IMG/VR virus record: IMGVR_UViG_2541047730_000004
Direction: 5' to 3' (one strand)
Source of the DNA: a virus
Lineage: Duplodnaviria > Heunggongvirae > Uroviricota > Caudoviricetes
DNA length: 42,322 bases
The notes below the pieces were generated by a model. It ran no database searches. It saw only the letters and a list, made by a program, of their open reading frames with translations, and was not told the DNA's origin. Position numbers and translations under genes: made by a program. Shown piece by piece: positions 9,747 through 37,223 of the stretch; within the stretch, counting starts at the first letter, position 1, and every line of letters begins with the position of its first letter.

Positions 9747-10451
9747 ATAACCATAACATTTTGTCTGTGTTTTAATTGCCTCACGAAGCGCATCTAACAT
9801 CTTGACTGCCACTTCATCATTCTCTGATGCAGATCCAGCAGGGAGATACTCCCCTTCAAGCGGAACCCGAGCAACAAGAGACAACGCTTCGGCGAATTGA
9901 TCTTCATCAATTTCTTTGTACGAACAGCCAAAATGAGATTTCAGTGACGACCACATGGTGATCATCGCCTTAGCCTGTTTTTCTTTTGGCAGAGACTGAC
10001 CGCGACTCATGACGAGTTGTTTAATGGCTTCCTGCTGTTCAGTGGTGATTTTACCCGGCAACGCCTTTTTAGCTTTGCGTGGGTTAACTACATGGCCTTT
10101 AGTCCAGTAATCGTAGAGCACATCGTCACACTCTTCCTGATACTGGATTACCTTGTCGCGGATTTCAGGGCGTACTTTGTTTGGACTGATGCTGTTCAAC
10201 CAAGCTGCCAATTTTCGTAAAGCCATACAAATCATGGCTTGCACCCCACCGGCAGAAGGTATGGTGATTTCCACCATACCCTTCGAGAAGCGTTGAGAAA
10301 TCTTCTTATGTTGAGATTTCCAGTCTAGCCCCATTCCCTCAACGATAGGTTTCATTGGGGTATACGGTTCACCGTTGTGATTGACAACATAAAGCTCTGC
10401 GCCGTGGAATGGCACGTTGATAGTAGATACCGCTGTTGCTATACTCGTCAT
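9513..10451 (-). CDS. Antirepressor (P22 Ant-like position and architecture)
   Basis: 312 aa directly downstream of an Arc-like RHH gene and divergent from a Mnt-like RHH gene (P22 immI layout); N-terminal domain differs from 8074..8730 but the C-terminal ~75 aa are shared. Confidence 0.65.
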   Translation of the reverse strand: MTSIATAVSTINVPFHGAELYVVNHNGEPYTPMKPIVEGMGLDWKSQHKKISQRFSKGMVEITIPSAGGVQAMICMALRKLAAWLNSISPNKVRPEIRDKVIQYQEECDDVLYDYWTKGHVVNPRKAKKALPGKITTEQQEAIKQLVMSRGQSLPKEKQAKAMITMWSSLKSHFGCSYKEIDEDQFAEALSLVARVPLEGEYLPAGSASENDEVAVKMLDALREAIKTQTKCYGYPLKPGYRSLIHSPSGVLGLTEHSLLMNLLNQLQEDGHDVSGAAAELTTMFCYIVGVSKCLRDIQTHAEYINDKAGFF

Positions 10452-10523
10452 GTCGTTAATTCCTATACGTAGTTTTACGATACTGAAGCCCTGACGGTCT
10501 GGCCACCGTTGGGCTTCGCTGTT

Positions 10524-14900: not shown

Positions 14901-14923
14901 TCAGCTTGTGCATAAACTGGCAT
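11909..14923 (-). CDS. Internal virion (ejection/core) protein, T7 gp16-like position
   Basis: 1004 aa, last gene of the translationally coupled virion operon; start overlaps the upstream stop (TAATG). Confidence 0.6.
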   Translation of the reverse strand: MPVYAQAEDLNNGLIPSGNVLPEQTGFDVALPEGANPEPLPPEPSVWGAAMRQNNILSGFFRPARQFEPVEGYNPYADKNELHGYEYWGAKFADSRSPEETAWIKQQIDDENEDRRLLSDAGVVGTLASIAAGMDPVTVASMFIPGAQGGALARIGSQIAIGAAGTALSEVVLNNQQITRSWGESAAHVAAGAMMSGVFASAGVALSPSVRAAATREVADALDNMSITSVTDRAAASLSDGGSVGAMKIDTATLDDLTPVSGGWVGKAAWKAGSYLTPLTRLMESPSKTVRKTTLELAENNFTLKGNERGIETPVAVETRTRGWQREEAAVVVGNKQAYAKYKADGGDMSFDSFRQQVGNAMRSGDVHANPVVQETAQAMRTVLNRVKVEMQKLGLLPPDEELKALGQASYFPRIYKVGKIISERDKFRRILVDWWSRGNKTLDPEDAEIAADIVINKITGAKVPQDFVSVFSVKAAGSTKERTLNVPDSLIRDYLESDVNYVLQRHIREAAAEIELTRTFGKRTMTERLQLIEDEYDSLLREVPEKIKAKYDESVANLKARYESNGEVVPQGKLDSLMRKYEKELRKEQSRLSKSRANDLRDITALRDRLVGTYGMPDDPSSFFVRAGAFLRDVNFTTKLGGMTVSAIPDLARGVMVNGFRNTMKGYASQISQSPAFKASKEDMLKMGIGLEAVLHSRSRAIGDLVDSSSRTTAVEAGMERITDAFGKLTLMDRFNDINKSMNGMLTSDGILSGAFSARRMAKLGINDNMAARIRSEFEKHGEVIDGWHIGNFDKWDDQYVAGVFQSAVLKDVNNTIITPGIGDTPLWASTPMGRTIFQFKSFTTASYNRALLGGLQEGTAQFYYGTAFQIALGSLVYALKEASKGKNVDWSPEKLVLEGIDRSGILGPLIEYNNMAEKATGGAVGLGALFGTGTQSRYASRGFVGSLFGPSFGLADSIIDVTAGVLNGDAGDRIAHNVRTLIPGNNLFWIAPLINQVDPVMR

Positions 14924-17640
14924 TATTTAGATCCCCACGAAAAGTAATCTTTAAATTTGTCCATACGTTCGTTATGCAGGCGCTGATACTGCTCATCCAG
15001 AGCGCGATGCTTGTCTTTGAAGTTTCGTATAGCCTGTCCACGCATAATTTCTTCCTGCTCGTACTGCTCCCGTTCCTGCTGCATTTTCTTATAAGGTTCC
15101 CAATCTTCTAGTGATGGTTCCCAACGCATAGGACGCCCATGTTTGTTATAAAACGGCTGGACCCGATCGATGCCATTTTCATCCTTAGTTCTTACCATAA
15201 TGGCGTAATCACCATTACGGGGTGTTAACACGTCAGGGGTTATGAATAATTCTCCATTAATACGACTCTCAGGGGTTTTTGTCTCAACTACAGGAGCATT
15301 ACCTGACGTGATCCCAAGCAACGTCGGACTGGTTGTTATAATCTCTTTGCGCTCACCGTACATCAGCCGTTCTTTTTCAGCTTTCCACTGCGCCGCCTGC
15401 CAGCCTGACGGCCCATATTGATAAAGCGCCTCCGGTGCATATTTCATAAACTGCGCTTCTCCGTTAACCTCGCTGATACTCCAAGTGCGGGCTATCTGCT
15501 GGTTGGTCATTTGCTTCGCTACGTCAGCGTTACCACCAGCAACGCGGTAGTTAATGTCATACATCGTCTGATAGTCATTACGGAATCTAGCTGCTTCCGG
15601 CGTCTGGTCATCCGCAGACGGATCCCAACGGAACCACTGCGCCATATTGCTGACAGCAGAATTCATCGCCTTGCTGCGATCATTTTTGTACTCTTTTGAA
15701 CTCTGCGTTGATGCCAATTGAGCTTTAAGTGCATCGGTCTGGTTGTACGTAAGGTTCTGCGCCTGCTCGATAGCCGCATCAGCAGACATGCCAGAATCAG
15801 TTAGTTGCTTAACAGTCAGATAAAAACCCTGCATATCCTTCGGCATATTTCCAATAGATGCATTGTCTGTTTCATATAACCGACTAAACAGTTCCGCCGC
15901 ATTTTTAACCACTTCCTGATTGCTGGATCGGGATACTGCTGAAAGCTGCGTGATGACCTGCGAAGGCATTATGCCAGTCTGAGCCACAAGCCGAACAACC
16001 CCATCATGAGTGGAGACATCATTAATACGAAAGTTCTGCGCCATTTCTGTGTAATCAGCAGCTTTCTGCATTGACTTGTTGCTTGGGTCTAATTTTTCAC
16101 CTATTGTCAGCGCCTCATTGAATCTGCGTGAATCCCGTTGCGCCTGAATTGCTTCATTTGATCTCTGAAGCAATGCAGACAATTTTCCGTAAGCATCGAG
16201 TTTTAACGCATAGTGAGGATCGTTAACCTCAGGCTTCACTTTCTGCATTTCTTCTTGCTGCTGAGAAGGAGGCAAATACTGAATTGCCTGGAATATTCTC
16301 GCGTTATCAATCGCTATATCCAGTTGATTGATTATTTTATCTGCGTTTTTTCCATACCCCCTGATGATGGTCTCCTGAGCCGGTATATAATCTGGAACCT
16401 CACCGTTATATAGCTGGGCCATGGTGTTATTAATAGCTGGCTCAAGCTGTTCTAATATTAACTTCCTTTGCTTTTCTATCTGACTATTAGCAAGGTTATC
16501 TATTTGATAAATAGTCAGTGGATCCATTCCAGTTTTATTTTTTCTATATCGGGAAAGCCACCCTTGTGTTTCTGATGGAAGATTTCGGATAAATTCTTCT
16601 TCTGATATTTCACCTTTACGTGGATCACCGACTTTGGCGATCAGTTTATCCACGTTACCCATCCCCCAGTTATATGCTGCTCCGGTCAATATTTCTGAGC
16701 CGTACTTACCATACAGTTGATTTACATAGTCACTGGCAAGCATTTCATGCTGTTGTTCGTCCGTAGGGTTGTATTCAACGCCACGTTTGGCCGCCAGTTC
16801 TTTCCCTGTGCCCGGCATTAACTGGTATTTCCCCTGGGCCCTCTCTCCAGAAGATGTTTTCGGTCCTTCAAGAATACTACCATCAGGATTAAAATGACGA
16901 TCACCTGATTCAACAAGGCGTATGGCACGCATGTCCATGCCTCCAGAATCATTTTTCTGAAACTGACCATTTAACCATCCTTCCGGATTAGCAGCGGCAT
17001 AATTCTTCGCCCGCATTTCTGTGGCACTGCGATCATCACTTTCTATTTCTTCCAGAATGCGTTCTTGTGACCATCCCCTGGCTGCTCCATATCTGGCAAT
17101 GGCTACCATTCTGGAATTTCTGGCTAAAGTGGCAGTTTGCGGGTCATTCCAGGCATCCGCTTCATTTTGTATCCATAATTTTCTCGTTGCCTGATATTGC
17201 TCATCTTCATAGGCATTTGTCTGCCCTATCTCATGTCTGAGAACTCCAGTACTGAACTGAATTTTCTGTGTTCTGGCTTGTTGCAAAAACATATTTCTTG
17301 CTGCTTCATCAGTCAATGAAGCAGCTATTTCTTCCACATCCTGATCAAATCCAGATATGTACTCTTGCCCCTTACCAATCGCATTTTTGCCTTGTTGTGC
17401 ATAAAAACCGGTTTGAGGGTTATAAAGACGTTCATTGCTGCGCTGATTAAGCTGAAGGATGGCATCCTGAGACAATGCAACATTCGCTTTCTGCCTGGCT
17501 TCACCATATGCCACCGCATACTGATCTGCGACATTCGCCAGCACCTGACCTGCTTGAGGAACATCGAAGGTTTGAAAACCACCGGTTTGCACACCACGAC
17601 TTTGCACCTGGCGTCCGGATGTAGTAGGAACAACAGGCAT
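14923..17640 (-). CDS. Internal virion protein with lytic transglycosylase (SLT) domain
   Basis: Central segment AIRLVESGDRHFNPDGS...GKYQLMPGTGKEL...AYNWGMGNV matches the SLT catalytic-domain pattern (ES...Q.MP...Y.WG); 905 aa. Confidence 0.7.
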   Translation of the reverse strand: MPVVPTTSGRQVQSRGVQTGGFQTFDVPQAGQVLANVADQYAVAYGEARQKANVALSQDAILQLNQRSNERLYNPQTGFYAQQGKNAIGKGQEYISGFDQDVEEIAASLTDEAARNMFLQQARTQKIQFSTGVLRHEIGQTNAYEDEQYQATRKLWIQNEADAWNDPQTATLARNSRMVAIARYGAARGWSQERILEEIESDDRSATEMRAKNYAAANPEGWLNGQFQKNDSGGMDMRAIRLVESGDRHFNPDGSILEGPKTSSGERAQGKYQLMPGTGKELAAKRGVEYNPTDEQQHEMLASDYVNQLYGKYGSEILTGAAYNWGMGNVDKLIAKVGDPRKGEISEEEFIRNLPSETQGWLSRYRKNKTGMDPLTIYQIDNLANSQIEKQRKLILEQLEPAINNTMAQLYNGEVPDYIPAQETIIRGYGKNADKIINQLDIAIDNARIFQAIQYLPPSQQQEEMQKVKPEVNDPHYALKLDAYGKLSALLQRSNEAIQAQRDSRRFNEALTIGEKLDPSNKSMQKAADYTEMAQNFRINDVSTHDGVVRLVAQTGIMPSQVITQLSAVSRSSNQEVVKNAAELFSRLYETDNASIGNMPKDMQGFYLTVKQLTDSGMSADAAIEQAQNLTYNQTDALKAQLASTQSSKEYKNDRSKAMNSAVSNMAQWFRWDPSADDQTPEAARFRNDYQTMYDINYRVAGGNADVAKQMTNQQIARTWSISEVNGEAQFMKYAPEALYQYGPSGWQAAQWKAEKERLMYGERKEIITTSPTLLGITSGNAPVVETKTPESRINGELFITPDVLTPRNGDYAIMVRTKDENGIDRVQPFYNKHGRPMRWEPSLEDWEPYKKMQQEREQYEQEEIMRGQAIRNFKDKHRALDEQYQRLHNERMDKFKDYFSWGSK

Positions 17641-18682: not shown

Positions 18683-21153
18683 CAGAATCCCCCAACAGTA
18701 AGACGAGGAATAACGGCAAGAACAGACAGCGGCAACGGGTCAAGCTGACGGATTCTTACACGTCCGTTTTTGCCCCAGTTACTGTCCAGTTTCACTTCTA
18801 CTTTTCCGGTAGCGTCATCAACAGGATCATCGTAGAACTCGAATTCACGCTGTGGATATTCGTACCATTTACCGCCGGGCGTAGTCGCCCAGATGCCACG
18901 ACTGGCATTCACAACCAGAGTAACGGACTGGATCACCTGTTTTTTGTCCAGCAGCGTTTCCTGTCCGTTAATGTTGATATCCAGTGTTTCGAATTCAGCA
19001 GTTATTGGCAGGCCGATGTGCACAACAGCCCCCGGTGATTCCAGCGTGACGGCACCTCCGGAAACCACTTTCTGTGGTTCCACGTTCGCATCAGAGAGAA
19101 TGTTTACGGTCTGGCCTTCAAGATGAGACAGGCCTCCAAATGTCCGGCGCGCCATCTGCCAGTTCGTGGTAGCCACATTCCTGAGGGATGGCGGGACGTT
19201 CCTGTTAGCACGAACCACTACAGCGGTATTGCTGGTTACAGAAATGATGTCGCAACGTAATTCTTTTGACACTTCATCGCCAGTATCAGGATCAGTTCCG
19301 GTATAAGGGAACTGTAGTTGCGCGCCGACATCACTACTGGTGAAGTACGCACCACCAGAAACACTGATTGTATATTCCGCACGGTAATCCCATTCACCAG
19401 AACCACCAGTGATGGTCATCGTTCTGTCAGACGTATTTCTTCCATCATAGCTAAGGCCAGAATCAACAAAGAAAGCATCTTCATCGCTGGTAAATAAACG
19501 GCTGGACAGTCGCTCTATGTATCTCACTGTTTGCCCGTTAACGGTTCGGTTAACGACGAAATACACCGCATCTTCATTGCCTTCGCTGATACTGCATGTG
19601 CTTTCATATTTTCCGGTACTGGATTGTGGTGCCCATGCAAAAACCTGCTGATCACGCAAATAGGTCATCACCAGTAATTTACCGTCATCACGAATGCAGA
19701 AGGCGCTGGAGTAAGGGACAATCGAGAAGCACCAGTCAACAATGCTGTGCTTCTGAAAAAGATGATTGGCAAGGATGGTCAGGTCGTTCCCCTGATAGCC
19801 GTCAACATCGAATGAGTAGGCCAGATCACGGACAACACTGCCTTTCTCCTGGACGAACAGAGCAATATTCGCCACGGCAATTGGTGGGACATTGCTCGAG
19901 CCATTTGATCCCTGAGAGCTGAATGCAAATGATGATGGGGTAAGCACTTTGTTCTGGTCGCCAGTGATGACGTACTCACCTCCGGAAGTCAGCGCCACCA
20001 GCGAACCAACATCAATCAGGTGACGGATCTCATTAACCTGACGCCCGGCATAGGTGTAGATAATTCTGTCGTCATCCTGCGTAGGATTGCTTTTGCCAAA
20101 ATCCTTATAATCCCCGGTACGGCTGGCCCAGATAGTCTGAGGGAACGCAGTCGATGCGGCGAAGTAAAGGCGTTGTTGATAATAAACAACAGTGCCAGGA
20201 TAACCGTTAATACTGTTCCAGGCATATTTAGCCCATTTATAGCTGGCATTATCCTCGCCAACTACCTGCGAAGGGATATAGGAAATCACCTCGGCAGTTG
20301 CAGTAGTTCCATTTGCAGCAGAGATACGGGCAATGCCAAAACCACTGTGCAGATACTCCCACTCAATGCCGGTATCATCATCACCGGATCCGCCCCAGCC
20401 ATCCCATGATGTGCCTTCTGTATGCGAAGGGCGCAAAGTGCCTGTTTTGCCTGCTGTAACGGCGCGATAGTAGTTACTGTCTGCACGGCGAATATCGCCA
20501 ATCGACGTACTCTTACTGGTTTCCCATACCGGCACAGAATCCACTGCAGGCTGTTCCAGATAGAACAATTTGCCTACCTGCTCCGCGCCAAAAATTGAGG
20601 CGCTTGCCGTTAACGTAATTGTCCCGGTGCTGGCGCTGGCATAAACCGTCACTGACTCGTCAATATTGATATCTTCAAATGGCCCGTTCTTCGTTACCAC
20701 ATCAACCAGTTGCCAGTTGTCATGCGCATAGCGGCGCAGCTCTTTCGGCGGGTATGCCGGGTGAACCAGCGTAAGCACGTCGGCGCTTTGCGTGAATTTA
20801 ATTCGGAACAGATCGGCTTCAGTATATGGCGTGGCAATTTCATAAATAACATTGCTGCTGTTCAGCACCAACGCACCATCTTTGATAACGCGCATGTACT
20901 GGTGTCCGAACTCCAGAGCATAGGTCTGAACCGTCGAGAACTGGAACGGGATCAGGCGGCATTTCCGATTTGGGTATTTGGCGGCACCGACAAAACGCGT
21001 ACCAGGTCGATTCTCAACGCCGCCATACTGCCGCACGATAAAGTTATCGCACTTGCGCAATGCCACCTGGTACTTCGCCATGTCGATACGACCGTACAAC
21101 GACGGTCCAATCTCACCACCGGCAAAGCTGGGCTGGATCCAACTGATAGCCAT
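18682..21153 (-). CDS. Tail tubular protein B-like (nozzle)
   Basis: 823 aa immediately after the gp11-like gene; size and position as in T7-like podoviruses. Confidence 0.6.
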   Translation of the reverse strand: MAISWIQPSFAGGEIGPSLYGRIDMAKYQVALRKCDNFIVRQYGGVENRPGTRFVGAAKYPNRKCRLIPFQFSTVQTYALEFGHQYMRVIKDGALVLNSSNVIYEIATPYTEADLFRIKFTQSADVLTLVHPAYPPKELRRYAHDNWQLVDVVTKNGPFEDINIDESVTVYASASTGTITLTASASIFGAEQVGKLFYLEQPAVDSVPVWETSKSTSIGDIRRADSNYYRAVTAGKTGTLRPSHTEGTSWDGWGGSGDDDTGIEWEYLHSGFGIARISAANGTTATAEVISYIPSQVVGEDNASYKWAKYAWNSINGYPGTVVYYQQRLYFAASTAFPQTIWASRTGDYKDFGKSNPTQDDDRIIYTYAGRQVNEIRHLIDVGSLVALTSGGEYVITGDQNKVLTPSSFAFSSQGSNGSSNVPPIAVANIALFVQEKGSVVRDLAYSFDVDGYQGNDLTILANHLFQKHSIVDWCFSIVPYSSAFCIRDDGKLLVMTYLRDQQVFAWAPQSSTGKYESTCSISEGNEDAVYFVVNRTVNGQTVRYIERLSSRLFTSDEDAFFVDSGLSYDGRNTSDRTMTITGGSGEWDYRAEYTISVSGGAYFTSSDVGAQLQFPYTGTDPDTGDEVSKELRCDIISVTSNTAVVVRANRNVPPSLRNVATTNWQMARRTFGGLSHLEGQTVNILSDANVEPQKVVSGGAVTLESPGAVVHIGLPITAEFETLDININGQETLLDKKQVIQSVTLVVNASRGIWATTPGGKWYEYPQREFEFYDDPVDDATGKVEVKLDSNWGKNGRVRIRQLDPLPLSVLAVIPRLTVGGF

Positions 21154-21761
21154 CAGGACAACCTCGCAATGGTAAACTCGTCAACCGGTGGCTGTGGTTC
21201 CTGTGATTCATTCTGGCTATGCGAGCCAGCACTAAGAATCACGCGATTGTACATATTGAGGGCAAACGTACCGAGGTCTGCATTCCCAGTCAGCGCCATG
21301 TTAATAGCTGCCGCAAGACGCCAGGCCAACGCCTCCATAAAAATGGCATCAAACATGTTCACATCTGAAACGCGAGAGACATACTTGAGCCATGCCTGCG
21401 GCTGGTCTGTGTAGATCAACTTTCCTGTTCCGTCGGTGTCTGCACCAACTTCGTACTGAACGCGCATTGCTGCTGTTGGATTGCGAACACCGGGAAGCAT
21501 GATTTCAGTGATGCGCAGGCAATCAGACGGGTACTGATACGCATACGCCCAGTCAGGCGGTGGATTGCTCGTATCTGCAAGCGCCACGCGTTTGGTAGCA
21601 AAGTTCCAGTCAAAATCAGAAAGCACAGCATCACGACAGGCATCGAAATGCAGGGAACACTCCCCCGCCTCTTTGCTGGCCTCAGTCAGGCTATTGATGC
21701 TGCGACTGTTGCCGATATTCGACAGCGCGCGGTTGCAGATCTCGACAACAGAAGCCATCAC
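21153..21761 (-). CDS. Tail tubular protein A-like (gp11-like adaptor)
   Basis: 202 aa; N-terminus (ICNRALSNIGNS...SLTE) resembles the gp11 N-terminus as recalled; gene order. Confidence 0.55.
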   Translation of the reverse strand: MMASVVEICNRALSNIGNSRSINSLTEASKEAGECSLHFDACRDAVLSDFDWNFATKRVALADTSNPPPDWAYAYQYPSDCLRITEIMLPGVRNPTAAMRVQYEVGADTDGTGKLIYTDQPQAWLKYVSRVSDVNMFDAIFMEALAWRLAAAINMALTGNADLGTFALNMYNRVILSAGSHSQNESQEPQPPVDEFTIARLS

Positions 21762-22087
21762 TCACCCCCGTTACCGTAAAGGGTTTCAGCAGCGGATTTA
21801 TCCGGCTCGCCGGTTGCAGGTGCGATCGCCATGTCGGTGATCTGCAGGTCTGCGCTACGGTTAACGCCGTCATCAGTTTCGCGGGCAGACAGTCCGCGAA
21901 TTACCGCCTTAGCAGTAATCATCACTTCGGTTCCTACACCCTGCGGTTGCGCCTTGAGCTTATTCAGCGTGTCATTGTTCAACGTGATGCAAAGCCCCCA
22001 TGGATATTCGTCGCGGTTTTTGGTTTCTCCGCTCTCGTCCTGGTAGCTGTCGGTGCCGGTTTTGAGGTTGACCAGTTCCATATACAC
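21758..22087 (-). CDS. Hypothetical virion-module protein
   Basis: ORF translationally coupled within the structural operon. Confidence 0.45.
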   Translation of the reverse strand: MYMELVNLKTGTDSYQDESGETKNRDEYPWGLCITLNNDTLNKLKAQPQGVGTEVMITAKAVIRGLSARETDDGVNRSADLQITDMAIAPATGEPDKSAAETLYGNGGE

Positions 22088-22131
22088 TCCTGCAATAAAG
22101 GGGCCGAAGCCCCTTGTCTGATACGCGAGGC

Positions 22132-22467
22132 TTACACGCCCAGTTCTTTGCGCTTATCTGCGATTTTCTCGCGAAGCGTTTCGGCTTTGGCGTTATGGTG
22201 CGGCTTCTCGTTAAAGAGCAGTTCATACTCTTCGCGGATCTTATCCAGATCGCCATCTTCGGCTGCATCGTTGATGGGTTTGGCACTGGTTACGGTTTCT
22301 GCTGCTTTACCTGTAACCTTTGCTTTCGCCGCCTTCGCTGCATCGTTGATGGGCTCCAGTGCACTACCTGGCTCGCCGTCGTATTCAATTTCAGAGCCCT
22401 CCGGCCACAGGTTATTGTGGATATGAGAGAGGCGCAGAACGCGGTACTTCGGTTTCTCACCTGACAT
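22132..22467 (-). CDS. Hypothetical virion-module protein
   Basis: ORF in the structural operon; charged, Ala/Lys-rich. Confidence 0.45.
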   Translation of the reverse strand: MSGEKPKYRVLRLSHIHNNLWPEGSEIEYDGEPGSALEPINDAAKAAKAKVTGKAAETVTSAKPINDAAEDGDLDKIREEYELLFNEKPHHNAKAETLREKIADKRKELGV

Positions 22468-22477
22468 CGATATCCCC

Positions 22478-22915
22478 TTAGCCGGTTACTTTGGAGCGGA
22501 TCGGATACGGCGTATTTGCATCAACATCTAGGTTAATGCCGGAAGTGAATTTGCCGGCCGTTAGTGGGCCAGTTGCGACGGAGTAGTTAACACGCAGATA
22601 TCGCTGAACACCGGCAGGCACCTTTGCAGAAACAACTCGTTTACCTGCTGTCAGGGTAGCCTTTGCCAGTGCGCCACTATCATAAATAGTGGACCATGAG
22701 CTGTTATTCTCACTCGTCTGCAACTGGATGTTTACAGTTGCCTCACCACTTGCCGTGGCGGCTTCGTTAACCAGCGCCCAAAACTCAAGCGGGTAACCCA
22801 CGCCGATATCGCGACGATTTCCATCAATTGGACCTAGATCGATTACGTCAGTAGAAGCCGCGGTATCAGTTACCGCCTGTGCTTCGGAGAACATCAACAG
22901 TTTGTCGGTGATCAT
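22478..22915 (-). CDS. Hypothetical structural protein (possible decoration/adaptor)
   Basis: 145 aa directly downstream of the major capsid gene. Confidence 0.45.
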   Translation of the reverse strand: MITDKLLMFSEAQAVTDTAASTDVIDLGPIDGNRRDIGVGYPLEFWALVNEAATASGEATVNIQLQTSENNSSWSTIYDSGALAKATLTAGKRVVSAKVPAGVQRYLRVNYSVATGPLTAGKFTSGINLDVDANTPYPIRSKVTG

Positions 22916-22966
22916 CTTCTTTCTCCATTAGTGGGTCTGTTACGACCCACTGGTTAATAACAGGCG

Positions 22967-23959
22967 TTACACCACACGGGCTTCTGTTTCCAGAAGCGCA
23001 TCAGTTTCACGGATTGGTACACCACGGAATGAAGTCCACCACTCGCCTTCTGTCTCTTTTACGCTGATCGCCAGAGATGTTTTCTCCAGAGATTGCAGAT
23101 CAAGAGCCTGGCCTACAGTGCGGTTCATGTAGAACACCGGGCGACCCATTCCACGGTTTGGAATGCGATGCAGTGCTTTAACCATCAACTTCGCAATATT
23201 TGCGGCAGAGGAAGGTTCTGAAAGATTGCTGACATCGATGTTTGCAATGCGAACAACATAACGCCAGTCACGCAGAGCAAGTCCGTTGTCCCATTTGTAA
23301 TGGGTGCGATAGCCTTCGTACTTGCCGCCATTAGCATCTTCCAGTGTCACCTGGCCTTTATCTTCCATCTGGATGCCAGCCTTCTGCCCTTTCGGGAAGA
23401 TGCCATGCACGGTGTTTTCGCCCCACACCACTAACCAGATTGAGGTGTTATCTGTACCCGTGCCACCAGCATCAATGATGTTCTGAGCATTACCCGCAGA
23501 CAGGCTGGAATAGCGGGAGGACAGTCCCATAAACTGCTGAGGGTTAACGCTGGAATCACCATAAAACAGTGTCTGCGCCATCTGCTGATTCATCGCTTCA
23601 ATAAATGCGCGGTCTTCAGACAGGCGGAATTCGGCGGTATTACCGTTCAGATCAGCCAGTGACTTATCGACTTCAGCATAGGTTTCCAGCATGCCAACGG
23701 AATCGGTGACCTGCACTGTGGTTGATTTGCTTGGCTGTACACCATAGTTCAGCAAACGCCAGGTAGCTGAAGGTAAACCAGAACGAATGGTGGTTCGGTG
23801 TCCGGTAGGAAGGTTCCCTTCGACAAAAGGCATATCCTGAAGGATCGGGTTAGTTTGACCGAGAAGCTCGATAATCTTATCGACTTTCCCGTTTGGATCG
23901 ACGCGCTTACCCCAGTCAGCCAGCGTTAGCGCAGTTAAGCCTTTAACAGCCATTGTCAT
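22967..23959 (-). CDS. Major capsid protein
   Basis: 330 aa directly after a scaffold-like gene and downstream of the portal; composition and size typical of HK97-fold podovirus capsid proteins. Confidence 0.75.
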   Translation of the reverse strand: MTMAVKGLTALTLADWGKRVDPNGKVDKIIELLGQTNPILQDMPFVEGNLPTGHRTTIRSGLPSATWRLLNYGVQPSKSTTVQVTDSVGMLETYAEVDKSLADLNGNTAEFRLSEDRAFIEAMNQQMAQTLFYGDSSVNPQQFMGLSSRYSSLSAGNAQNIIDAGGTGTDNTSIWLVVWGENTVHGIFPKGQKAGIQMEDKGQVTLEDANGGKYEGYRTHYKWDNGLALRDWRYVVRIANIDVSNLSEPSSAANIAKLMVKALHRIPNRGMGRPVFYMNRTVGQALDLQSLEKTSLAISVKETEGEWWTSFRGVPIRETDALLETEARVV

Positions 23960-23967
23960 TTCCTCTC

Positions 23968-24669
23968 TTATTTGCCATAGAGCACTTCGGCCGCACTACG
24001 CTGGCCTTCATTACCACCGGTGACCATGCCATCTTCAGACATCGCCTTTCCGATTTTCACGAACGTTTTGACCAGATCAGGGTGATTACCCAGCCCGGTG
24101 GTGTTCAGATATTCTTTGAGTTCAGGTGTCCCGAACTGGTCAAGCGCACGCTGTGCGGCGCTAAGGTTAGAAATCAACTTGTCGCCACCGATTTCTTTGT
24201 CAGCTTTTACATCCGCAGCCCACTGCTCGGTTGTTTTCTGCCAGGCTTCTACCTGGCGCTGCTGAACACCTGCCAGAATCTTCGGATAAGCATCAACCAG
24301 CTTTTGCGCTTGCTCGTTGGTCAGGTTTAGTTCTCGCGCCACCGGCTCGAATTCCTTCAACGCTTCTGTATCCAGCTCTACGCCTTCGGCAGCCTGAAAC
24401 TCGTACTTCTCAGGCGCACCCTCTGGTTTATCGCCGTCCTTTTTTTCATCCTGCTTATCGTTTTCAGGATTTTTGTCATCAGCAGGTTTATCGCCATCAG
24501 CAACAGGTTGTGACTTATCACCTTCCGGTTGTGATGGATCACCAACTGGAGCATGGTTATCACCTGCAGGCGCTGACGGTTCTGACGCAGCCGGAGCTGC
24601 TCCACCATCGACTGGTTGCTCATTGCAAAGACGGCGATACAGCAAACGCTCAAATAAATTCATGATCAC
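23968..24669 (-). CDS. Scaffolding protein
   Basis: Acidic, Pro/Asp/Lys-rich low-complexity N-terminus followed by helical segments; located between portal and capsid. Confidence 0.65.
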   Translation of the reverse strand: MIMNLFERLLYRRLCNEQPVDGGAAPAASEPSAPAGDNHAPVGDPSQPEGDKSQPVADGDKPADDKNPENDKQDEKKDGDKPEGAPEKYEFQAAEGVELDTEALKEFEPVARELNLTNEQAQKLVDAYPKILAGVQQRQVEAWQKTTEQWAADVKADKEIGGDKLISNLSAAQRALDQFGTPELKEYLNTTGLGNHPDLVKTFVKIGKAMSEDGMVTGGNEGQRSAAEVLYGK

Positions 24670-24962
24670 TCCTGTTCACTGGCCTCTTTGGCCATCTTCA
24701 AATACTGTTCAGGGCAATGCGCCATAACGCGCTGAAACAGTTCCAGCGCCAGATTGCGTTGCCCCTCATTAAATGCCATTGCCATAGCGTCCATCGGTGA
24801 GATAGCGGAAAACACACGGCCTTTCTCCAGCACCGACCAGACAACGCGACGCCCCTGTTCACTGCTCATGACAAAGCGAATGTCATCAATTTCACGCTGC
24901 GCCATGTCACGTTGCTTACGGGCGTTTTCTTCTTTCAGTTGATCGTCTTCGTAATCTGTCAT
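24666..24962 (-). CDS. Hypothetical small protein between portal and scaffold
   Basis: 98-aa ORF, translationally coupled. Confidence 0.45.
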   Translation of the reverse strand: MTDYEDDQLKEENARKQRDMAQREIDDIRFVMSSEQGRRVVWSVLEKGRVFSAISPMDAMAMAFNEGQRNLALELFQRVMAHCPEQYLKMAKEASEQE

Positions 24963-26638
24963 TGTGATTGCCCACCCTGACCACTAACTGCATTCGCCAT
25001 AGCTGACAACACACTCGGATCCGAAGTTTTAGCTTCGCTTAGCGTCTTGGCCCCCTGTGCCGCCGCCATCCCCATCGCCATCATTTGTTGCTGCTGTTGT
25101 TGCTGTGCCCGTTGCTGGCGAGCCTGCTCAACCTGTTCCTGCGGAACAATGACGGTTGGAGACACTCCGGACATATCAGCGAATGCATCGATCGCCTGAT
25201 CAACGTTGAGTTTGTCGAGAGCTTCTGGTTTCGCTTGCGCAAGTTGACCAATGAAGTTAACCGTGGACGCCAGACTGGACAGGCCGATAGACTTCTGCGC
25301 CTGAGCCATGACGGAAATGTATTCGACCTTCAGGGGCATGCCTTCCATCGCGTCAGGCGGTGGCGGCAGCATGTTTTTGCGCACCATCATCGAGAAAGCG
25401 CGGTCAATGAGAGGATTAAGACATTCGTCGTTCAGACGCTCCAGAACCGGCCCCAACATCAGAAGTTTTTCTTCTTTCATTTCGATCACCGCTTCAACAG
25501 GCATCGAGCGGGTATTGATGTTCTGCAACATCATGAACAGATCGACAAAGTAGGCGCTGTTAATGATTTGACGAGTGTCCTGAATGTCTGCCACCAAATC
25601 TGCTGTACTGGGGTTAACCAGATAAGCAGGCCTGAAGCCATCCTGACCAGTAATCTGATCGATATACGTGATGTCGCCAGGAAGAAGGGAGGCGCGCTGA
25701 TTCTTGAGGGAAGTCGGAGCAACCATCGGCGGATTGGTGGCTTTATCAATCAACTGCGACTTGCGCTTCTGGAGAAGCTGCAATGCCTTAACAGGTCCAA
25801 GCGCCAGCATACCCGGGCATGATGATCCATAAACATCTTCGCCGTTAACTTCCCAGCGCGGAGCCATAATTGGAAACTCATCGAATCCGGACTCACGCAA
25901 CAACTTGTCGTTATCTCCACCAACCTCGTAATAAACCGATTTGAATGGCTTGTTCTTGCTATCCAGCTTCGATGTATCGCGGTCAATGTTCGGGTAAACC
26001 GAATGCATCACTTCGATCCACTTCTCGTAGGTGCCGCTTTCCCACATGCTTTTTACGGATTCGCTGACGTTATTTAGCCCGAACTCCTGAACAAGCTGAC
26101 GAACAGTCATAGAGAACTTGCGAAAACAGGTGTCAACACTGCCACGAGGTGAGTTAGCCAGGTAGTAACTGCCTATCGGGAATGGCATTGTGCGAATGAT
26201 GTCCTCGTCATCCTCCAGCACTGCCATTGCACCAGTGCTGTATGTGCCGAGGCTTCCGTATAACTGCGGAAGAGACTGGTAGAGATTCGACTTATTGAAC
26301 ATATCGTTCATGCGGTTCTGAACTGCCTCAAGCCACAACTTAACAGGGCCATAATCCATCATTTCAGGATCTGGCGTAGCCAGGCGAAACCACGGACGCG
26401 CGGGGCTTGTGATGCCTGACATCATGCCGCTGGCGAGAGTGCGCGCCGCCATAGTCCCGGTCGAATCAATAATGCGTGTATTGCGCCGATCGTTACGGTT
26501 GGCCTCAGAAGTCAGAAAGCGGGAACCACGCGGGTTGATGTAATCACTCAACTCGCGCCAGTGCGGCTCGAACGACTGACGCTCGCTTTCAAGTTGTGCG
26601 AACTGTTTGTTCAATCGCTCTTTAGTTGTTTCCGCCAT
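24959..26638 (-). CDS. Portal (head-tail connector) protein, T7 gp8-like
   Basis: 559 aa; N-terminus MAETTKERL... and the Q/A/M-rich C-terminal tail (QQQQQQQMMAMGMAAAQGA) resemble T7-type connectors; first gene of the virion operon. Confidence 0.75.
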   Translation of the reverse strand: MAETTKERLNKQFAQLESERQSFEPHWRELSDYINPRGSRFLTSEANRNDRRNTRIIDSTGTMAARTLASGMMSGITSPARPWFRLATPDPEMMDYGPVKLWLEAVQNRMNDMFNKSNLYQSLPQLYGSLGTYSTGAMAVLEDDEDIIRTMPFPIGSYYLANSPRGSVDTCFRKFSMTVRQLVQEFGLNNVSESVKSMWESGTYEKWIEVMHSVYPNIDRDTSKLDSKNKPFKSVYYEVGGDNDKLLRESGFDEFPIMAPRWEVNGEDVYGSSCPGMLALGPVKALQLLQKRKSQLIDKATNPPMVAPTSLKNQRASLLPGDITYIDQITGQDGFRPAYLVNPSTADLVADIQDTRQIINSAYFVDLFMMLQNINTRSMPVEAVIEMKEEKLLMLGPVLERLNDECLNPLIDRAFSMMVRKNMLPPPPDAMEGMPLKVEYISVMAQAQKSIGLSSLASTVNFIGQLAQAKPEALDKLNVDQAIDAFADMSGVSPTVIVPQEQVEQARQQRAQQQQQQQMMAMGMAAAQGAKTLSEAKTSDPSVLSAMANAVSGQGGQSQ

Positions 26639-26652
26639 TTCAATGACTCCGG

Positions 26653-26859
26653 TTACTGACCAAGCAGCGTTTTACCGCTGGTATTAGCGGTTGATGTGTC
26701 GCCCTGAGAACCGGTAAGCAGCGTAGAACTACGACCAGCAGCAGCGCGACGGCGACGTGTTTCTTCGTCGCGGGCATCAACAACGGCAGCATCCTGCTCC
26801 TGTGGTGCTGCCTGAACTTCTGGTGTTGCAGGCACTGATGGTGAGCTACCCATGCACAT
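26653..26859 (-). CDS. Possible small ORF upstream of portal
   Basis: 68-aa Ala/Pro/Thr-rich ORF ending 15 bp before the portal start; no motif support. Confidence 0.25.
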   Translation of the reverse strand: MCMGSSPSVPATPEVQAAPQEQDAAVVDARDEETRRRRAAAGRSSTLLTGSQGDTSTANTSGKTLLGQ

Positions 26860-26946
26860 ATCAATGACTCCGTACGCAATTAAATTATCACCAATTTAAC
26901 CACATATGATTTATTTATCGTAGATAGTTGACATTTAACGCGCGAA

Positions 26947-26966
26947 TTATTACCTTTCAGGTAACT
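26947..26966. promoter_or_regulatory. Operator palindrome ATTATTACC-TTTCA-GGTAACT upstream of the virion operon
   Basis: TTACC-N5-GGTAA family; a TTGACA hexamer lies at 26928-26933 on the plus strand. Confidence 0.5.
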
Positions 26967-27286
26967 AAAGAGTTCATTCCGGTTACTAACCTGACTGGCT
27001 TGTCGTTAAATTGAACAGGTGGAGTGAGCTTTTATTTTGAGCAGTACGGCGTATGGCACATGCGACGATAGCGGTCTGGATACGTTTAAGGGGCACCCTC
27101 CCTTGCTCGGGCAAACGAACCAGGTAGCCGGAATGTGCAAGTCGAGCGGTTTTATTCCGCGCACGGGGATTCACCATCCCGGCGATTCGGTGTGACGCCT
27201 CGGAAGAGACGAGGGTACAACGATGAGAGCATTTATGGAGCCGCGACAAAGTGTGGTGCCTTAACAGGCTAAGTGCTCTCAGCGTT

Positions 27287-27363
27287 GTGGCATTAGCTCA
27301 GTTGGACAGAGCAACCGCCTTCTAAGCGGTTGGTCGCAGGTTCGAATCCTGCATGCCACGCCA
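27287..27363 (+). tRNA. tRNA-Arg (anticodon UCU, reads AGA)
   Basis: Cloverleaf by hand: acceptor GTGGCAT/ATGCCAC, D-arm GCTC..GAGC, anticodon stem ACCGC/GCGGT with loop CTTCTAA, T-arm GCAGG-TTCGAAT-CCTGC, discriminator G, encoded CCA. Confidence 0.85.
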
Positions 27364-27406
27364 GAATCACGCCTAAGGACCGTGATGCCAGAAGTTCCAG
27401 GGGCTT

Positions 27407-27449
27407 GGCGGTGATGGTTTCCCTTGAAGGACTATCACCGCCCTTTTTA
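27407..27449 (+). terminator. Terminator-like hairpin downstream of the tRNA
   Basis: GGCGGTGAT...ATCACCGCC stem (9 bp, long loop) followed by CTTTTT. Confidence 0.45.
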
Positions 27450-27526
27450 CAGCAGGACGCCATTGCGATGACTTCATGCTGTAAACCAGTACAGCCACGG
27501 AAGGCATAACTCATTGCTTCCAGTTC

Positions 27527-27550
27527 GCCCGGTTCGCCGGGCATTTTTTT
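27527..27550 (+). terminator. Rho-independent terminator
   Basis: GCCCGG-TTCG-CCGGGC followed by ATTTTTTT. Confidence 0.65.
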
Positions 27551-27565
27551 GCTTGATGACCGCAA

Positions 27566-27582
27566 ATTACCTTAAAGGTATA
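27566..27582. promoter_or_regulatory. Operator palindrome ATTACC-TTAAA-GGTATAA overlapping a consensus -10 (TATAAT 27578-27583)
   Basis: TTACC-N5-GGTAT; TATAAT hexamer; candidate -35 TTGATG at 27553-27558. Confidence 0.5.
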
Positions 27583-27585
27583 ATC

Positions 27586-28404
27586 ATGAAAAACTTCAAG
27601 GTAATTAGCATGTTTGAATCCTTCAAAGAGCTGTTTTTATCTACTGCCAATACTGCCGTGAATCGAGCCAAAAACCCTGTGCTTGGTGCTTTTGTTATGT
27701 CCTGGTGCGCCTTCAACTGGAAATCAATTCTTTATCTATTTTTTAGCAAATCAAACATAATAGATAAAATTTCATATATCTCAGATAACAGCACATGGAA
27801 AACTGTTATGTTTTATCCATGCTTATCTGTAATTGCTATCTGCTGCCTATTACCATGGGTAAACAATATCATTAACGTATGGCAAGCAAAGCCTCTTGAT
27901 AATAATGACTCAATCGATAATCACCTGAAGGCAAGAAAAATCCAGCGTGAAACCAGACTGCAGAGGTTATTGGCTAAAAAAGATGTTACATACGACAAAG
28001 TTAAGACTGGCGCGGAAAAAGACATCCAAGAGATGAAAGAAGAGATTATTCGATCAAAGAATAGTATGGGGGAATTGACTGCCGAGTTGAAAGCTAAAGA
28101 TGACGAATTGAGATCCGCCAGTGCTCAGTTAGCAGCTCTAAATCATTCATTAAAAGAGATATCGGAAACTCTGGGAAGAATGAATGAGGCATATAAGACC
28201 CTCCAAAATGATTTCGACGAATACAAACTCAAATACCCTGAAAAATCTCAAATAAAAAGTCTTGCACTTGGCAACGGCCAAACAATTAGCAACTTTTTGG
28301 AGCAACACAACTTATCCGGATTAAAATCTGGTAAGCCAGACGTTTTTAATAACTTTGGTGTTCTATCTGGATTATCAGGTTTCGAGGATAAAAATAAAGA
28401 CTAA
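27586..28404 (+). CDS. AT-rich cargo gene: membrane protein with two N-terminal transmembrane helices and a C-terminal coiled-coil (candidate abortive-infection/exclusion protein)
   Basis: Opposite strand to the flanking late genes, markedly AT-rich, own promoter and operator. Hydrophobic segments PVLGAFVMSWCAFNW and FYPCLSVIAICCLLPWV, then a heptad-rich K/E/L region. Alternative start at 27610 with an AAGG RBS. Confidence 0.55.
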   Translation: MKNFKVISMFESFKELFLSTANTAVNRAKNPVLGAFVMSWCAFNWKSILYLFFSKSNIIDKISYISDNSTWKTVMFYPCLSVIAICCLLPWVNNIINVWQAKPLDNNDSIDNHLKARKIQRETRLQRLLAKKDVTYDKVKTGAEKDIQEMKEEIIRSKNSMGELTAELKAKDDELRSASAQLAALNHSLKEISETLGRMNEAYKTLQNDFDEYKLKYPEKSQIKSLALGNGQTISNFLEQHNLSGLKSGKPDVFNNFGVLSGLSGFEDKNKD

Positions 28405-29876
28405 GCATATGGATCGTACTCGGTAAGCGCCTTGCCTTGCTGGTTCTGCTGCCCGGGAAGTCGCAGGCGCTTCGACACCGGGAAAGCAAACGTCAGCAGC
28501 AGCGCATCGCCTTTACCCGGCGAACGCCCAAGTCGCTCTTTGATATCTTCCTTCGGTTCGATAACGATTTTACCGTCCACTCGAACTTTGTACTCTGCCG
28601 CCGACAGGTCGTCTGCAGTTTCCTGGTCATCCAGCATGCCGCCCAGCCTCAGCCATGTCTTACATGAGTTGAACATCTCCCCACGCTTGTTGAGCATCTG
28701 CGGGTCAGTAGACGCGCCACCGAACGGAACAAGTTGCCATGTACGACCCCAGCCGTCACCGATTGACTTCAGACCAGTTCCGTAACCGAAGTCGATGAAC
28801 ACTGCGTCAGCCTGGTACTGGTCTTCAAAGTCAGCGATACGCTTCGCCATAATCAGATCGTCAGTGGTCTTGTTGCCAGTCCACAGCACCTTACTGTGCA
28901 GCCCCTGCCGCAGGTATATCACAGCGTCATCAACGCCTGAGTATGCCGGGTCAACGCCGATTATCACCGGAGCATGTGCAACCTGCGCAGCGGTGACCAC
29001 CCGTTTCATTGCCTCGTCAGTAAGTCCGGTAGGGATAAACTGCAATTCAGATGCATCCGGGAATATGCCGCGCACACGGATTTTAACGAAGTCGCTGTCT
29101 TCCCCGTAGTCATCAACCCATTTCTGCAACTGCTGTTTGTTAGTGCCTTCCACCGTCCGGCTGTCAATCTGCGCAGTTTTCCAGCGGTGTTTATATTTGC
29201 GGAAACATTCGCGGAAACGCCCGGTGTTACGTGTAGGGTTTCCGAACGCCACCCAGATAATCTCAGTGTCTTCGTCCGTAAGCGCACCCTCAGCAACTTC
29301 CCACACCAGATCCGCAATGTTCGACGCTTCATCGAATACCACGATGATGCGTTTGCGCTCGTTGTGTAGTCCGGCGAATGCCTCAGTGTTGTGCTCAGAC
29401 CAGGGGATTGCGTCAGCTCGCCACCGCTTGTCGTGCCCAGGATCATTGCTGTACATCGCGGTAGCGGTACAGGTAAACCAGTCTTTCGTGATAGCAAGGT
29501 TCGACCACTTGATAATTTCCGGCCAGGTCTTCGTTCGTAGCTGGTTGTCGGTGTTGGCGGTCACCACGACCTTACAATCCTCGCAAGTGGACATGCCCCA
29601 GTTGATCAGCATTGAGATGAATGCGGATTTACCAATACCGTGACCAGAAGCGCGTGCCAGCATAAGCGGCTGATAGCGCGTCGCTGGATTCTGCAGGTGA
29701 TCACGTATCTCTCGGAACGCATCAGCCTGCCACTGACGTGGGCCGGTAGCATGTGCCAGTTCAGTCCCTTCTTCCCCCCACGGGAACGCATAGAGGGCAT
29801 AGCCAAGCGGATCGTGAGTGAACCCTGCAATATCCTCGATCAACTGCTCTTCAGGAGATAACGCTGTATCTGTCAC
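28401..29876 (-). CDS. Terminase large subunit
   Basis: 491 aa; ATPase P-loop-like GHGIGKS and Walker B-like IVVFDEASN in the N-terminal half, acidic nuclease-type C-terminal half; follows the small subunit with overlapping stop/start. Confidence 0.85.
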   Translation of the reverse strand: MTDTALSPEEQLIEDIAGFTHDPLGYALYAFPWGEEGTELAHATGPRQWQADAFREIRDHLQNPATRYQPLMLARASGHGIGKSAFISMLINWGMSTCEDCKVVVTANTDNQLRTKTWPEIIKWSNLAITKDWFTCTATAMYSNDPGHDKRWRADAIPWSEHNTEAFAGLHNERKRIIVVFDEASNIADLVWEVAEGALTDEDTEIIWVAFGNPTRNTGRFRECFRKYKHRWKTAQIDSRTVEGTNKQQLQKWVDDYGEDSDFVKIRVRGIFPDASELQFIPTGLTDEAMKRVVTAAQVAHAPVIIGVDPAYSGVDDAVIYLRQGLHSKVLWTGNKTTDDLIMAKRIADFEDQYQADAVFIDFGYGTGLKSIGDGWGRTWQLVPFGGASTDPQMLNKRGEMFNSCKTWLRLGGMLDDQETADDLSAAEYKVRVDGKIVIEPKEDIKERLGRSPGKGDALLLTFAFPVSKRLRLPGQQNQQGKALTEYDPYA

Positions 29877-36520: not shown

Positions 36521-36550
36521 TCACCCATAAGGTAACAAAAATCAAGGATA

Positions 36551-36585
36551 GTTACCTATGAGGTGCATTTACCTGTTGGGTAATA
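36551..36585. promoter_or_regulatory. OR-equivalent: two adjacent operator sites
   Basis: AGTTACC-TATGA-GGTGCAT and TTTACC-TGTTG-GGTAATA between the cro-like and CI-like genes. Confidence 0.6.
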
Positions 36586-36638: not shown

Positions 36639-37223
36639 ATGAAAAGTATCCAGGACGTCCGCAGGCAAAATCTCAACGACTTGATCGACCGTGAATTCAA
36701 TGGTGTTCAGACGCGGATGGCAGAAAAACTTGGAACTCAGGCAAATCTGGTAAACCGCTGGGCTCTTGGCAAGAAGGTTATCGGCGACCAGGTTGCGCGA
36801 AAAATTGAAGCTGCCGCCAATAAACCACGTAACTGGCTTGATATCGATCGCTCGCTTTCTCAGGAAGGTTTTCAGCCTGTCGGCCCAAGCGACATTGGTC
36901 AGCTGGCGGCTCACAACCTGGAACGCTGGATGAGCGAAAGCCGCGACCTTTCAACACAGGGAAAACTTCACCGCGCATCCGGCGTCGCCCAGGTGACAAT
37001 CAGCCGCCTGTTAAACAATGAGGTCAGCGTTTCCATTTCCACCCTGGAGAATGTTGCATCCGCATTCGGGCGTCACGGCTATGAATTACTGATTCACCCG
37101 CACGACCCTGCGACCATCAACTATGACCGCTCGCGCTACGCATTGTTACCCGAAACCGAGAAAGCAAAGATCGAAAGTTATATTGAATTTGTCATCAACC
37201 AGAACGAAAAAAACAAACAATAA
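36639..37223 (+). CDS. CI-like repressor with two HTH (XRE-type) segments and no LexA-like peptidase domain
   Basis: HTH-like RMAEKLGTQANLVNRWALGKK and ASGVAQVTISRLLNNEVSVSISTLENVASAFG. No Ala-Gly / GDSM / Lys autocleavage signature. Divergent from cro; terminator and OL-like sites downstream. Confidence 0.65.
   Translation: MKSIQDVRRQNLNDLIDREFNGVQTRMAEKLGTQANLVNRWALGKKVIGDQVARKIEAAANKPRNWLDIDRSLSQEGFQPVGPSDIGQLAAHNLERWMSESRDLSTQGKLHRASGVAQVTISRLLNNEVSVSISTLENVASAFGRHGYELLIHPHDPATINYDRSRYALLPETEKAKIESYIEFVINQNEKNKQ

Follow-up and report, generated by a model that had tools for sequence, protein, structure and literature searches.

Temperate coliphages are known to carry tRNA genes, such as ileZ-argN-argO in Stx phages, Asn/Thr tRNAs in SfI, Sf6 and P22-like phages, and trnA, trnT and trnI in P1. 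The accepted role of these tRNAs is codon compensation, in which they match codons that are over-used by the phage (PMC3636060). In lambdoid phages (SfI, Sf6, P22-like phages and others), the tRNA genes lie downstream of Q and belong to late transcripts. The tRNA-Arg gene that we describe here, found in a 42,322-nt stretch of DNA that was analyzed in full (hereafter the window), is unlike these lambdoid ones in that it has a candidate promoter of its own bearing a repressor operator and lies on the strand opposite to the late genes. The tRNAs of P1 likewise sit in a repressor-controlled operon, and among them trnI adjoins the same structured RNA as the one that we find next to the window tRNA. 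The argO gene of Stx2 phages, also a tRNA-Arg gene, matches the T-arm region of the window tRNA.

The gene as such is already known and annotated in a well-known group of E. coli prophages. It is annotated as tRNA-Arg in the phage records KP869107, KP869108, MN187550, SPN9TCW and SPC32H, as well as in every RefSeq E. coli genome among the matches listed, and the paper describing vB_EcoP_ZX5 counts "one tRNA" and says no more on that gene (PMC9782041). The same tRNA, at the same position between portal and terminase genes, is found in phages of the phiV10 group (E. coli O157 typing phages 9 and 10, phiv142-3, vB_EcoP_ZX5, and the Salmonella phages SPN9TCW and SPC32H) and in guaA prophages of RefSeq E. 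coli genomes. Among the E. coli phages of the phiV10 group, the tRNA block is 98-99% identical. What sets the window apart from these relatives is not the tRNA but the cargo ORF downstream of it, with homology stopping at about 27550.

An intact tRNA-Arg(UCU) gene between late genes

The window starts with the host genes yfgH and yfgI and ends with the integrase gene of the prophage, which lies beside guaA in the closest genome (NZ_OZ547246.1, 99.7% identical). Judged from its sequence, the prophage is of the phiV10/epsilon15 type (genus Uetakevirus) and is integrated beside guaA. The features discussed below are collected in Table 1.

Table 1. Coordinates of the features of the tRNA locus, its surroundings and related loci (window positions unless stated otherwise)
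Feature	Position	Strand	Basis or remark
att core ATTGAGTGGGAATGATT	1164-1180		prophage start; core sequence from PMC9782041
Palindrome TTACCTnnnAGGTAA, matches	6575, 7695, 7788, 8797, 26950, 27567, 34176, 34238, 36521-36583, 37281, 37343		at most two mismatches
isrK	7839-7915	+	Rfam
C4 antisense RNA	7940-8024	+	Rfam
sar RNA	10453-10520	+	Rfam
Portal gene	24959-26638	-	neighbor of tRNA
Small ORF	26653-26859	-	neighbor of tRNA
Candidate sigma-70 promoter of RNA unit: TTGACA (26928-26933), 17-nt spacer, TACCTT (26951-26956)	26928-26956	+	sequence reading; inferred
Repressor operator palindrome TTACCTTTCAGGTAA over the -10, perfect copy	26950-26964	.	pattern scan, epsilon15 annotation
Conserved structured RNA (upstream element), ~240 nt	27046-27286	+	covariation, covariance model
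5' core: P1, P2, P4, P5, two candidate pseudoknots	27046-27217	+	
3' stem domain	27218-27286	+	encloses variable insert, ends at tRNA G1
tRNA-Arg(UCU), 77 nt	27287-27363	+	ARAGORN, Rfam RF00005, argU comparison
Anticodon UCU	27321-27323	+	ARAGORN
Encoded 3' CCA	27361-27363	+	sequence reading
Conserved trailer hairpin AUCACG-CCUAAGGAC-CGUGAU	27366-27386	+	sequence reading; directly after CCA
Intrinsic terminator T1: 14-bp hairpin (27407-27442), then CUUUUU	27407-27449	+	-22.8 kcal/mol, z = -3.6 vs shuffles
Intrinsic terminator T2: GCCCGG-UUCG-CCGGGC (27527-27542), then AU7	27527-27550	+	z = -2.8 vs shuffles
Separate cargo ORF promoter ATGACC-17-TATAAT	27556-27584	+	promoter scan, 10/12 matches
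Second operator copy over cargo promoter	27567-27581		1 mismatch to palindrome
Cargo ORF WP_000787772.1, predicted coiled-coil protein, phrog_4780	27586-28404	+	PGAP CDS
Large terminase gene	28401-29876	-	neighbor of tRNA
cI-like repressor gene	36639-37223		
P1 RNA core, unannotated	L009:2502-2680 (P1 NC_005856 71023-71191)		between trnI and ban
tRNA-like modules	L006:4241-4369 (PhiR63_1); also L008, L018, L075, L104, L140, L142, L148		

ARAGORN called a single tRNA in the whole window, a tRNA-Arg with anticodon tct, and the same nucleotides scored 73.3 bits against Rfam RF00005 (gathering score 29, E = 2.6e-14), in a match that covers the full model (positions 1-71) with the four arms intact and zero non-canonical pairs flagged. 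The cloverleaf has stems of 7, 4, 5 and 5 bp and a T-loop reading UUCGAAU, its anticodon occupies positions 34-36 in a 7-nt loop with U33 and A37, and its folding stability exceeds that of shuffled sequences (z = -2.9). A preliminary description of this DNA, made from the letters alone, had proposed a canonical cloverleaf with anticodon UCU, arginine isotype and encoded CCA, lying on the opposite strand between late genes, and our results bear this out throughout. The small ORF and the portal gene on one side and the large terminase gene on the other are all on the minus strand, and the plus strand is shared by the tRNA and one AT-rich ORF. The identity elements of E. coli ArgRS are A20, C35 and U36; in the phage tRNA, A20 is kept in the D-loop AGUUGGACA, followed by a C at 20a, and C35 and U36 are both present.

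The tRNA-Arg(UCU) of the host, argU (dnaY), is identical to the phage tRNA at 64 of 77 positions. The two are alike in length, D-arm, T-arm, discriminator and encoded CCA, and the anticodon loop of the phage tRNA (CUUCUAA, 27319-27325) is exactly that of argU. Ten of the differences from K-12 argU fall in stems, where they amount to five compensated pairs: acceptor-stem pairs 2-71, 4-69 and 6-67 are other Watson-Crick pairs than in argU, while two pairs of the anticodon stem are swapped and still Watson-Crick. The remaining three changes are in the D-loop and the variable loop. In contrast to argU, which is a single chromosomal gene, the phage tRNA is phage-borne and appears to be under repressor control.

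Public viral contigs yielded eight distinct variants of the phage tRNA, ~97-100% identical, in which the anticodon stem-loop is invariant and changes are confined to the D-loop, the variable loop, the discriminator and acceptor positions that tolerate G-U pairs. Similarly, all the ARAGORN calls that abut the 3' end of the structured RNA described below have anticodon tct. As far as sequences can tell, this pattern of variation is that of a working decoder, not that of a relic.

AGA and AGG codons are enriched in the prophage

The preliminary description had ascribed to the tRNA a role in compensating for rare AGA/AGG codons. We therefore compared codon usage in 51 prophage ORFs (12,360 codons) and in a host set of 36 genes annotated in the closest genome (16,417 codons). 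As anticipated, both codons are enriched in the prophage, AGA at 7.36 per 1000 (91/12360) vs 0.85 in host genes (14/16417; Fisher p = 1.6e-20) and AGG at 4.53 vs 0.67 per 1000 (Fisher p = 9e-12). The host genes in this sample are core genes and the genome-wide AGA frequency of K-12 is nearer 2 per 1000, so the true AGA enrichment is roughly 3.5- to 9-fold.

The 91 AGA codons are unevenly spread. The tailspike (13), two large injection proteins (10 and 13) and a tail protein (5) together hold 41 of them, others being found in a DnaT-like early protein (6), Rz (4) and the adjacent cargo ORF (4), and there are none in the major capsid protein, the protease, the cement proteins, the portal and the terminase. 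The preliminary description had singled out the adjacent AT-rich cargo as the likely beneficiary. The adjacent ORF is indeed AT-rich (36.8% GC), and AGA and AGG account for five of its eight Arg codons (four and one, respectively). However, the idea is too narrow, since the main users of AGA are the tailspike, tail/injection and some early genes.

The split runs through a single late operon: AGA/AGG codons are abundant in the tailspike and injection genes (3495-6470 and 11909-17640) and essentially absent from the head and portal genes (21153-26638) and the terminase gene. This suggests that the two halves of the operon differ in evolutionary origin or in expression constraints.

A natural comparison is offered by epsilon15, in which the tRNA has been deleted and its flanks have been kept. 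In this one pair, which is anecdotal and involves another host, AGA is less frequent in epsilon15 than in the window prophage (4.38 per 1000, p = 0.0026), while AGG does not differ (4.06 per 1000). A drop specific to AGA in the phage that lacks the tRNA fits codon supply, because the UCU anticodon reads AGA best. On the other hand, the deletion in epsilon15 marks the tRNA as accessory. In E. coli, DNA acquired by horizontal transfer is typically rich in AGA/AGG; since epsilon15 also manages without the tRNA at 4.4 AGA per 1000, the benefit of the tRNA may be small. We nevertheless think that the gene probably encodes a functional argU-type tRNA-Arg(UCU) of a phiV10/epsilon15-type podophage, with an operator-overlapped promoter, that supplements AGA decoding.

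A repressor operator overlaps the candidate promoter

The candidate promoter upstream of the tRNA has a weak -10 (TACCTT) and was missed by a consensus scan, but its TTGACA-17-TACCTT arrangement recurs at the equivalent place in epsilon15. Its -10 is covered by a perfect operator palindrome, ~80 nt upstream of the structured RNA. Altogether, the 15-bp palindrome TTACCTnnnAGGTAA has 17 matches in the window with at most two mismatches, vs 0.87 expected. Three of these lie in the gap that separates the cro-like gene from the divergently oriented cI-like gene, two come shortly after cI, and others precede plus-strand units. The epsilon15 record contains the same palindrome at the equivalent position, annotated as protein_bind "repressor; lysogeny," and annotates similar repressor sites at the immunity region. 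We also looked for an experimentally defined operator in the ZX5 paper, which gives none (PMC9782041).

Seen along the window, the palindrome accompanies the cI/cro region and almost all starts of plus-strand units, and the repressor thus appears to control many scattered promoters directly. Since its operator overlaps the upstream promoter, we infer that the tRNA and the cargo ORF would be repressed in the lysogen and turned on at induction, which would make the tRNA an early lytic product. The gene does lie in a prophage, as stated in the preliminary description, but "prophage-borne" should not be taken to mean expressed in the lysogen, in view of the operator on its promoter.

Downstream of the encoded CCA, the conserved trailer hairpin recurs after tRNA-like modules of other phages (e.g., L075, L126, L008 and L137). 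The tRNA had been credited with a terminator of its own; a terminator is present, but two follow the tRNA, not one. Terminators homologous to T1 follow the RNA unit in other phages, and T2, at which homology to phiV10 ends, is conserved in epsilon15.

The cargo ORF beyond T2 varies between relatives and has a separate promoter, itself covered by the second operator copy. It matches phrog_4780 with E = 4e-137, in an alignment that starts at residue 9. Its true start is probably the ATG at 27610, because the ATG at 27586 is only 1 nt past the -10 and the phrog alignment begins at 27610. In Pfam and PADLOC, the protein has only weak matches of coiled-coil type. We rejected the possibility of a defense gene, as the matches to DndD, LmuB and JetC are to coiled-coil segments only, with E values of 1e-5 or weaker.

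Elsewhere in the window, three Rfam families match above gathering score, namely isrK (67.7 bits), C4 antisense RNA (61.2 bits) and sar RNA (45.2 bits). They precede or flank antirepressor genes (Ant, 8074-8730; antirepressor, 9513-10415), and the ensemble resembles, in a podophage, an immI control region with antisense RNA in the style of P1/P22.

A conserved element directly upstream of the tRNA

The preliminary description dealt with the tRNA alone, and while it was right about the tRNA, it missed its fusion to a conserved structured RNA that abuts the first base of the tRNA. This upstream element bears no annotation in the records that we checked and contains no credible ORF. In a set of 42 sequences below 96% identity, we examined covariation in four helices and two pseudoknots and found 96.8% of cells to be paired, vs 26-46% in slid-partner controls. 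Twelve pairs display changes on both sides (96 cells), which was matched by none of 500 shuffles. For the pseudoknot CACC/GGUG, five sequences have AACC/GGUU instead, a compensated variant, while the candidate pseudoknot GCACAU/AUGUGC is invariant and hence gives no covariation signal. The plus strand is the RNA strand, because the invariant G-U pairs fit only this strand. As MAFFT left two registers unaligned for column-wise covariation, the 3' stem was tested by comparing the energies of cognate and non-cognate duplexes. Cognate duplexes (-18.1 kcal/mol) are 4.4 kcal/mol more stable than non-cognate ones (-13.8), a result attained in 0/2000 permutations. The covariance model that we built, R1, gives 138.5 bits for the element in the window and 34 bits for the remnant in epsilon15. 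We are highly confident that the upstream RNA is real and structured.

The element has no match in Rfam 15 at gathering score, and none that is relevant at E <= 10 in positions 26600-27700 of the window or 3900-4600 of PhiR63_1 (L006). No description of the RNA was found in the literature that we searched, and we use "undescribed" provisionally. A small protein gene in its place was considered and rejected: opposite-strand ORFs are annotated there in three phages, but at 19-25% identity they do not align with each other, and the invariant G-U pairs fit only a plus-strand RNA.

We also considered a put-type antiterminator, because the element sits in pL leaders and the first hairpin of HK639 is similar. 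The put RNA of HK022 is ~70 nt long and has two stems (PMC9378689). The position of the lambdoid copies of the element, in the leader of a pL-type, operator-controlled transcript, is indeed putL-like, and the putL-like RNA annotated in the GenBank record of HK639 has a similar ACGGCG...GCGUCG first hairpin. However, R1 has no match in HK639 or HK022, where only negative-bit fragments are reported with filters off, and pairwise alignment of the element with put RNA is poor. Moreover, the unit in the window is ill-suited to an antiterminator, because two strong terminators close it and the next gene has a promoter of its own. It was the covariance-model search that led us to reject the put family. 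The Pas sRNAs of E. coli prophages were rejected as well, as they belong to another locus, the Q-lysis region. GOLLD and ROOL, which are structured RNAs of phages and prophages and often adjoin tRNA genes, provide an analogy only: they are several hundred nt long and belong to other bacterial groups, and the element has no Rfam match.

The element in other phages

Matches to the element were obtained in 103 phage records and in 1840 of 5426 complete E. coli genomes; none of the 40 E. coli matches listed overlaps an annotated feature. It is found in Uetakeviruses, in the Punaviruses P1, P7 and D6, in lambdoid phages, in phages of Klebsiella and Salmonella, and also in a Stenotrophomonas siphophage, next to a cI-like gene. 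An exact 19-mer of the element occurs in more than 120 viral contigs and in species of about a dozen Enterobacterales genera.

The contexts are varied. P1 carries the element within the ban operon, which is controlled by C1; it starts 15 nt past the 3' end of trnI and precedes ban. There, the RNA core is followed by a 14-codon ORF, the stop of which overlaps the ban start (TAATG), and is preceded by a motif, AUUUGGUUGUAAC, that is common to P1 and the lambdoid copies. The latter (cdtI, mEp460, Stx2c phages and PhiR63_1) are found by cI, ~40 nt downstream of an operator-flanked pL-type promoter. In lambdoid copies (L006:4225-4265 and equivalents), the last stem has a 3' strand (UGCUCUCA or UGCUCUUU) that resembles boxA. 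Some 14 nt further on is a hairpin whose stem covaries and whose loop, GGCUGA, is constant; the layout recalls the boxA-boxB of nut sites. In epsilon15 (L157:1963-2042; AY150271.2, about 2650-2730), only the first ~65 nt of the RNA are kept, after which the sequence jumps to the homologue of 27450-27550. The tRNA, T1 and most of the RNA have been cleanly deleted. The epsilon15 record also has a predicted RNase III site just upstream.

We found 108 distinct copies of the element, of which ~22 have a tRNA-Arg(UCU) directly 3', ~14 have a tRNA(CAT) 5', and no tRNA accompanies the other 72. Many of the copies without a tRNA carry, in the tRNA slot, a module of 62-203 nt. It opens with GUGGUG(A) and closes with CACCAC; in between are, in this order, a hairpin whose loop is always GGCUGA, a variable insert and a hairpin resembling a T-arm (its loop being the canonical UUCGACU in one case). 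The module is then followed by the same trailer hairpin as in the window (AUCACGCCUUAGGACCGUGAU; 27366-27386) and by a homologous terminator. The D-like and T-like hairpins covary (six pairs, 0/500 shuffles), while the minimum free energy cloverleaf of the module has z = -0.6. The acceptor-like long-range stem is invariant and was part of the filter by which the modules were selected; a strict filter recovered only genuine tRNAs, and the relaxed filter that found the modules selects for the pairing that is reported. The tRNA-like architecture of these modules is thus no more than suggestive. If this reading holds, the slot may serve, in general, to bring RNase P to the transcript and thereby liberate the upstream RNA. 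Since its anticodon and identity elements are preserved, the phiV10-type tRNA would, in addition, decode.

As two-thirds of the copies of the upstream RNA have no tRNA, the position of the tRNA may owe something to RNA processing, beyond codon usage. Taken to its full extent, this would make the tRNA mainly a processing handle that recruits RNase P and thereby fixes the 3' terminus of the upstream RNA. The latter would then be the true functional product, and decoding a secondary matter. The geometry is compatible with such a role, the 3' stem of the upstream RNA ending at G1 of the tRNA, the P1 RNA beginning 15 nt after trnI and a tRNA abutting the element in 36 of 108 distinct copies, and so are the many tRNA-less copies in which a module with tRNA-like arms precedes the same trailer hairpin and terminator. 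However, the architecture of these modules is only suggestive, with an acceptor stem that is invariant and part of the selection filter. Furthermore, a handle needs neither a UCU anticodon, nor A20, nor a loop identical to that of argU, nor an encoded CCA, yet these are kept in all copies, and AGA usage tracks the presence of the tRNA in the single comparison available. We therefore consider it unlikely that processing is the main role of the tRNA.

Discussion

We favor supplementation of AGA decoding as the role of the tRNA and envision the following scenario. The tRNA would be transcribed from its own promoter, the -10 of which is overlapped by the operator of the prophage repressor, and would accordingly be off or barely expressed in the lysogen, its synthesis starting early once the prophage is induced or a cell is infected. 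The primary transcript would consist of a leader, the ~240-nt structured RNA, the tRNA and the trailer hairpin, and would end at the two terminators. A cut by RNase P at 27286/27287 would both mature the tRNA and free the upstream RNA, and the encoded CCA together with A20, C35 and U36 would allow charging with arginine. The phage tRNA would then top up the scarce host tRNA-Arg(UCU), which is expected to speed up the decoding of AGA and, less so, of AGG, codons that are 7-9 times commoner in the phage genes than in the host genes sampled and concentrated in the tailspike, tail, injection and several early genes. Being made early, the tRNA would be ready before the AGA-rich tail genes are translated.

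A different benefit might be counter-defense, the phage tRNA replacing a host tRNA-Arg that has been cleaved or depleted by an anticodon nuclease, of colicin D type or other. Phage tRNAs that escape tRNA-targeting defenses provide a general precedent by analogy, and early, repressor-controlled expression would suit such a role. However, the CUUCUAA loop is that of host argU, with no escape variant seen where such nucleases recognize the tRNA, no tRNA-repair or nuclease-inhibitor genes are adjacent, and the cargo ORF yields only coiled-coil noise against defense models, which makes this role quite improbable. Lastly, phages often carry tRNA fragments at att sites (e.g., the matched HP1 attP), but we give almost no credence to the notion that the gene is a non-functional relic, whether belonging to a former attachment site or derived from a captured host tRNA now in decay, since it is full length, scores 73.3 bits with all stems compensated, has its own candidate promoter, operator and terminators, lies far from the att core at the 3' end of guaA where integration occurs, and is ~97-100% identical across eight variants that differ at tolerant positions only. 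We thus retain a functional tRNA that supplements AGA decoding as the preferred reading.

A broader reading concerns the unit as a whole. The tRNA might be the 3' module of an ancient, mobile, repressor-controlled RNA unit, the 5' module of which (27046-27286) would represent a new class of pseudoknotted RNA, expressed early in the lytic cycle, released by RNase P via the tRNA or a tRNA-like module, and acting on a conserved component of the host or the phage. We put this forward tentatively, as a possibility that falls somewhat short of an even chance when the statement is taken as a whole, that is, a new RNA class together with functional coupling to the tRNA slot. Under this reading, roughly one in three complete E. 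coli genomes would contain a member of the class, as would Uetakeviruses, plasmid prophages of the P1/P7 type, many lambdoid phages and one Stenotrophomonas phage.

By itself, the tRNA adds little to what is known, being one more annotated temperate-phage tRNA for the rarest codon of E. coli, and it is useful mainly as a clean case, with a natural deletion relative, epsilon15, in which AGA use is lower. Its context outweighs it, through repressor control and, above all, through the fused structured RNA. Direct control by the repressor would make the tRNA a gene of the lytic cycle rather than one of lysogenic conversion. As for the RNA, it covaries strongly and is present, without annotation, in the model phage P1 as well as in sequenced E. 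coli genomes by the thousands. Should it prove to be a new functional class, its genetics could be taken up at once in P1 and phiV10.
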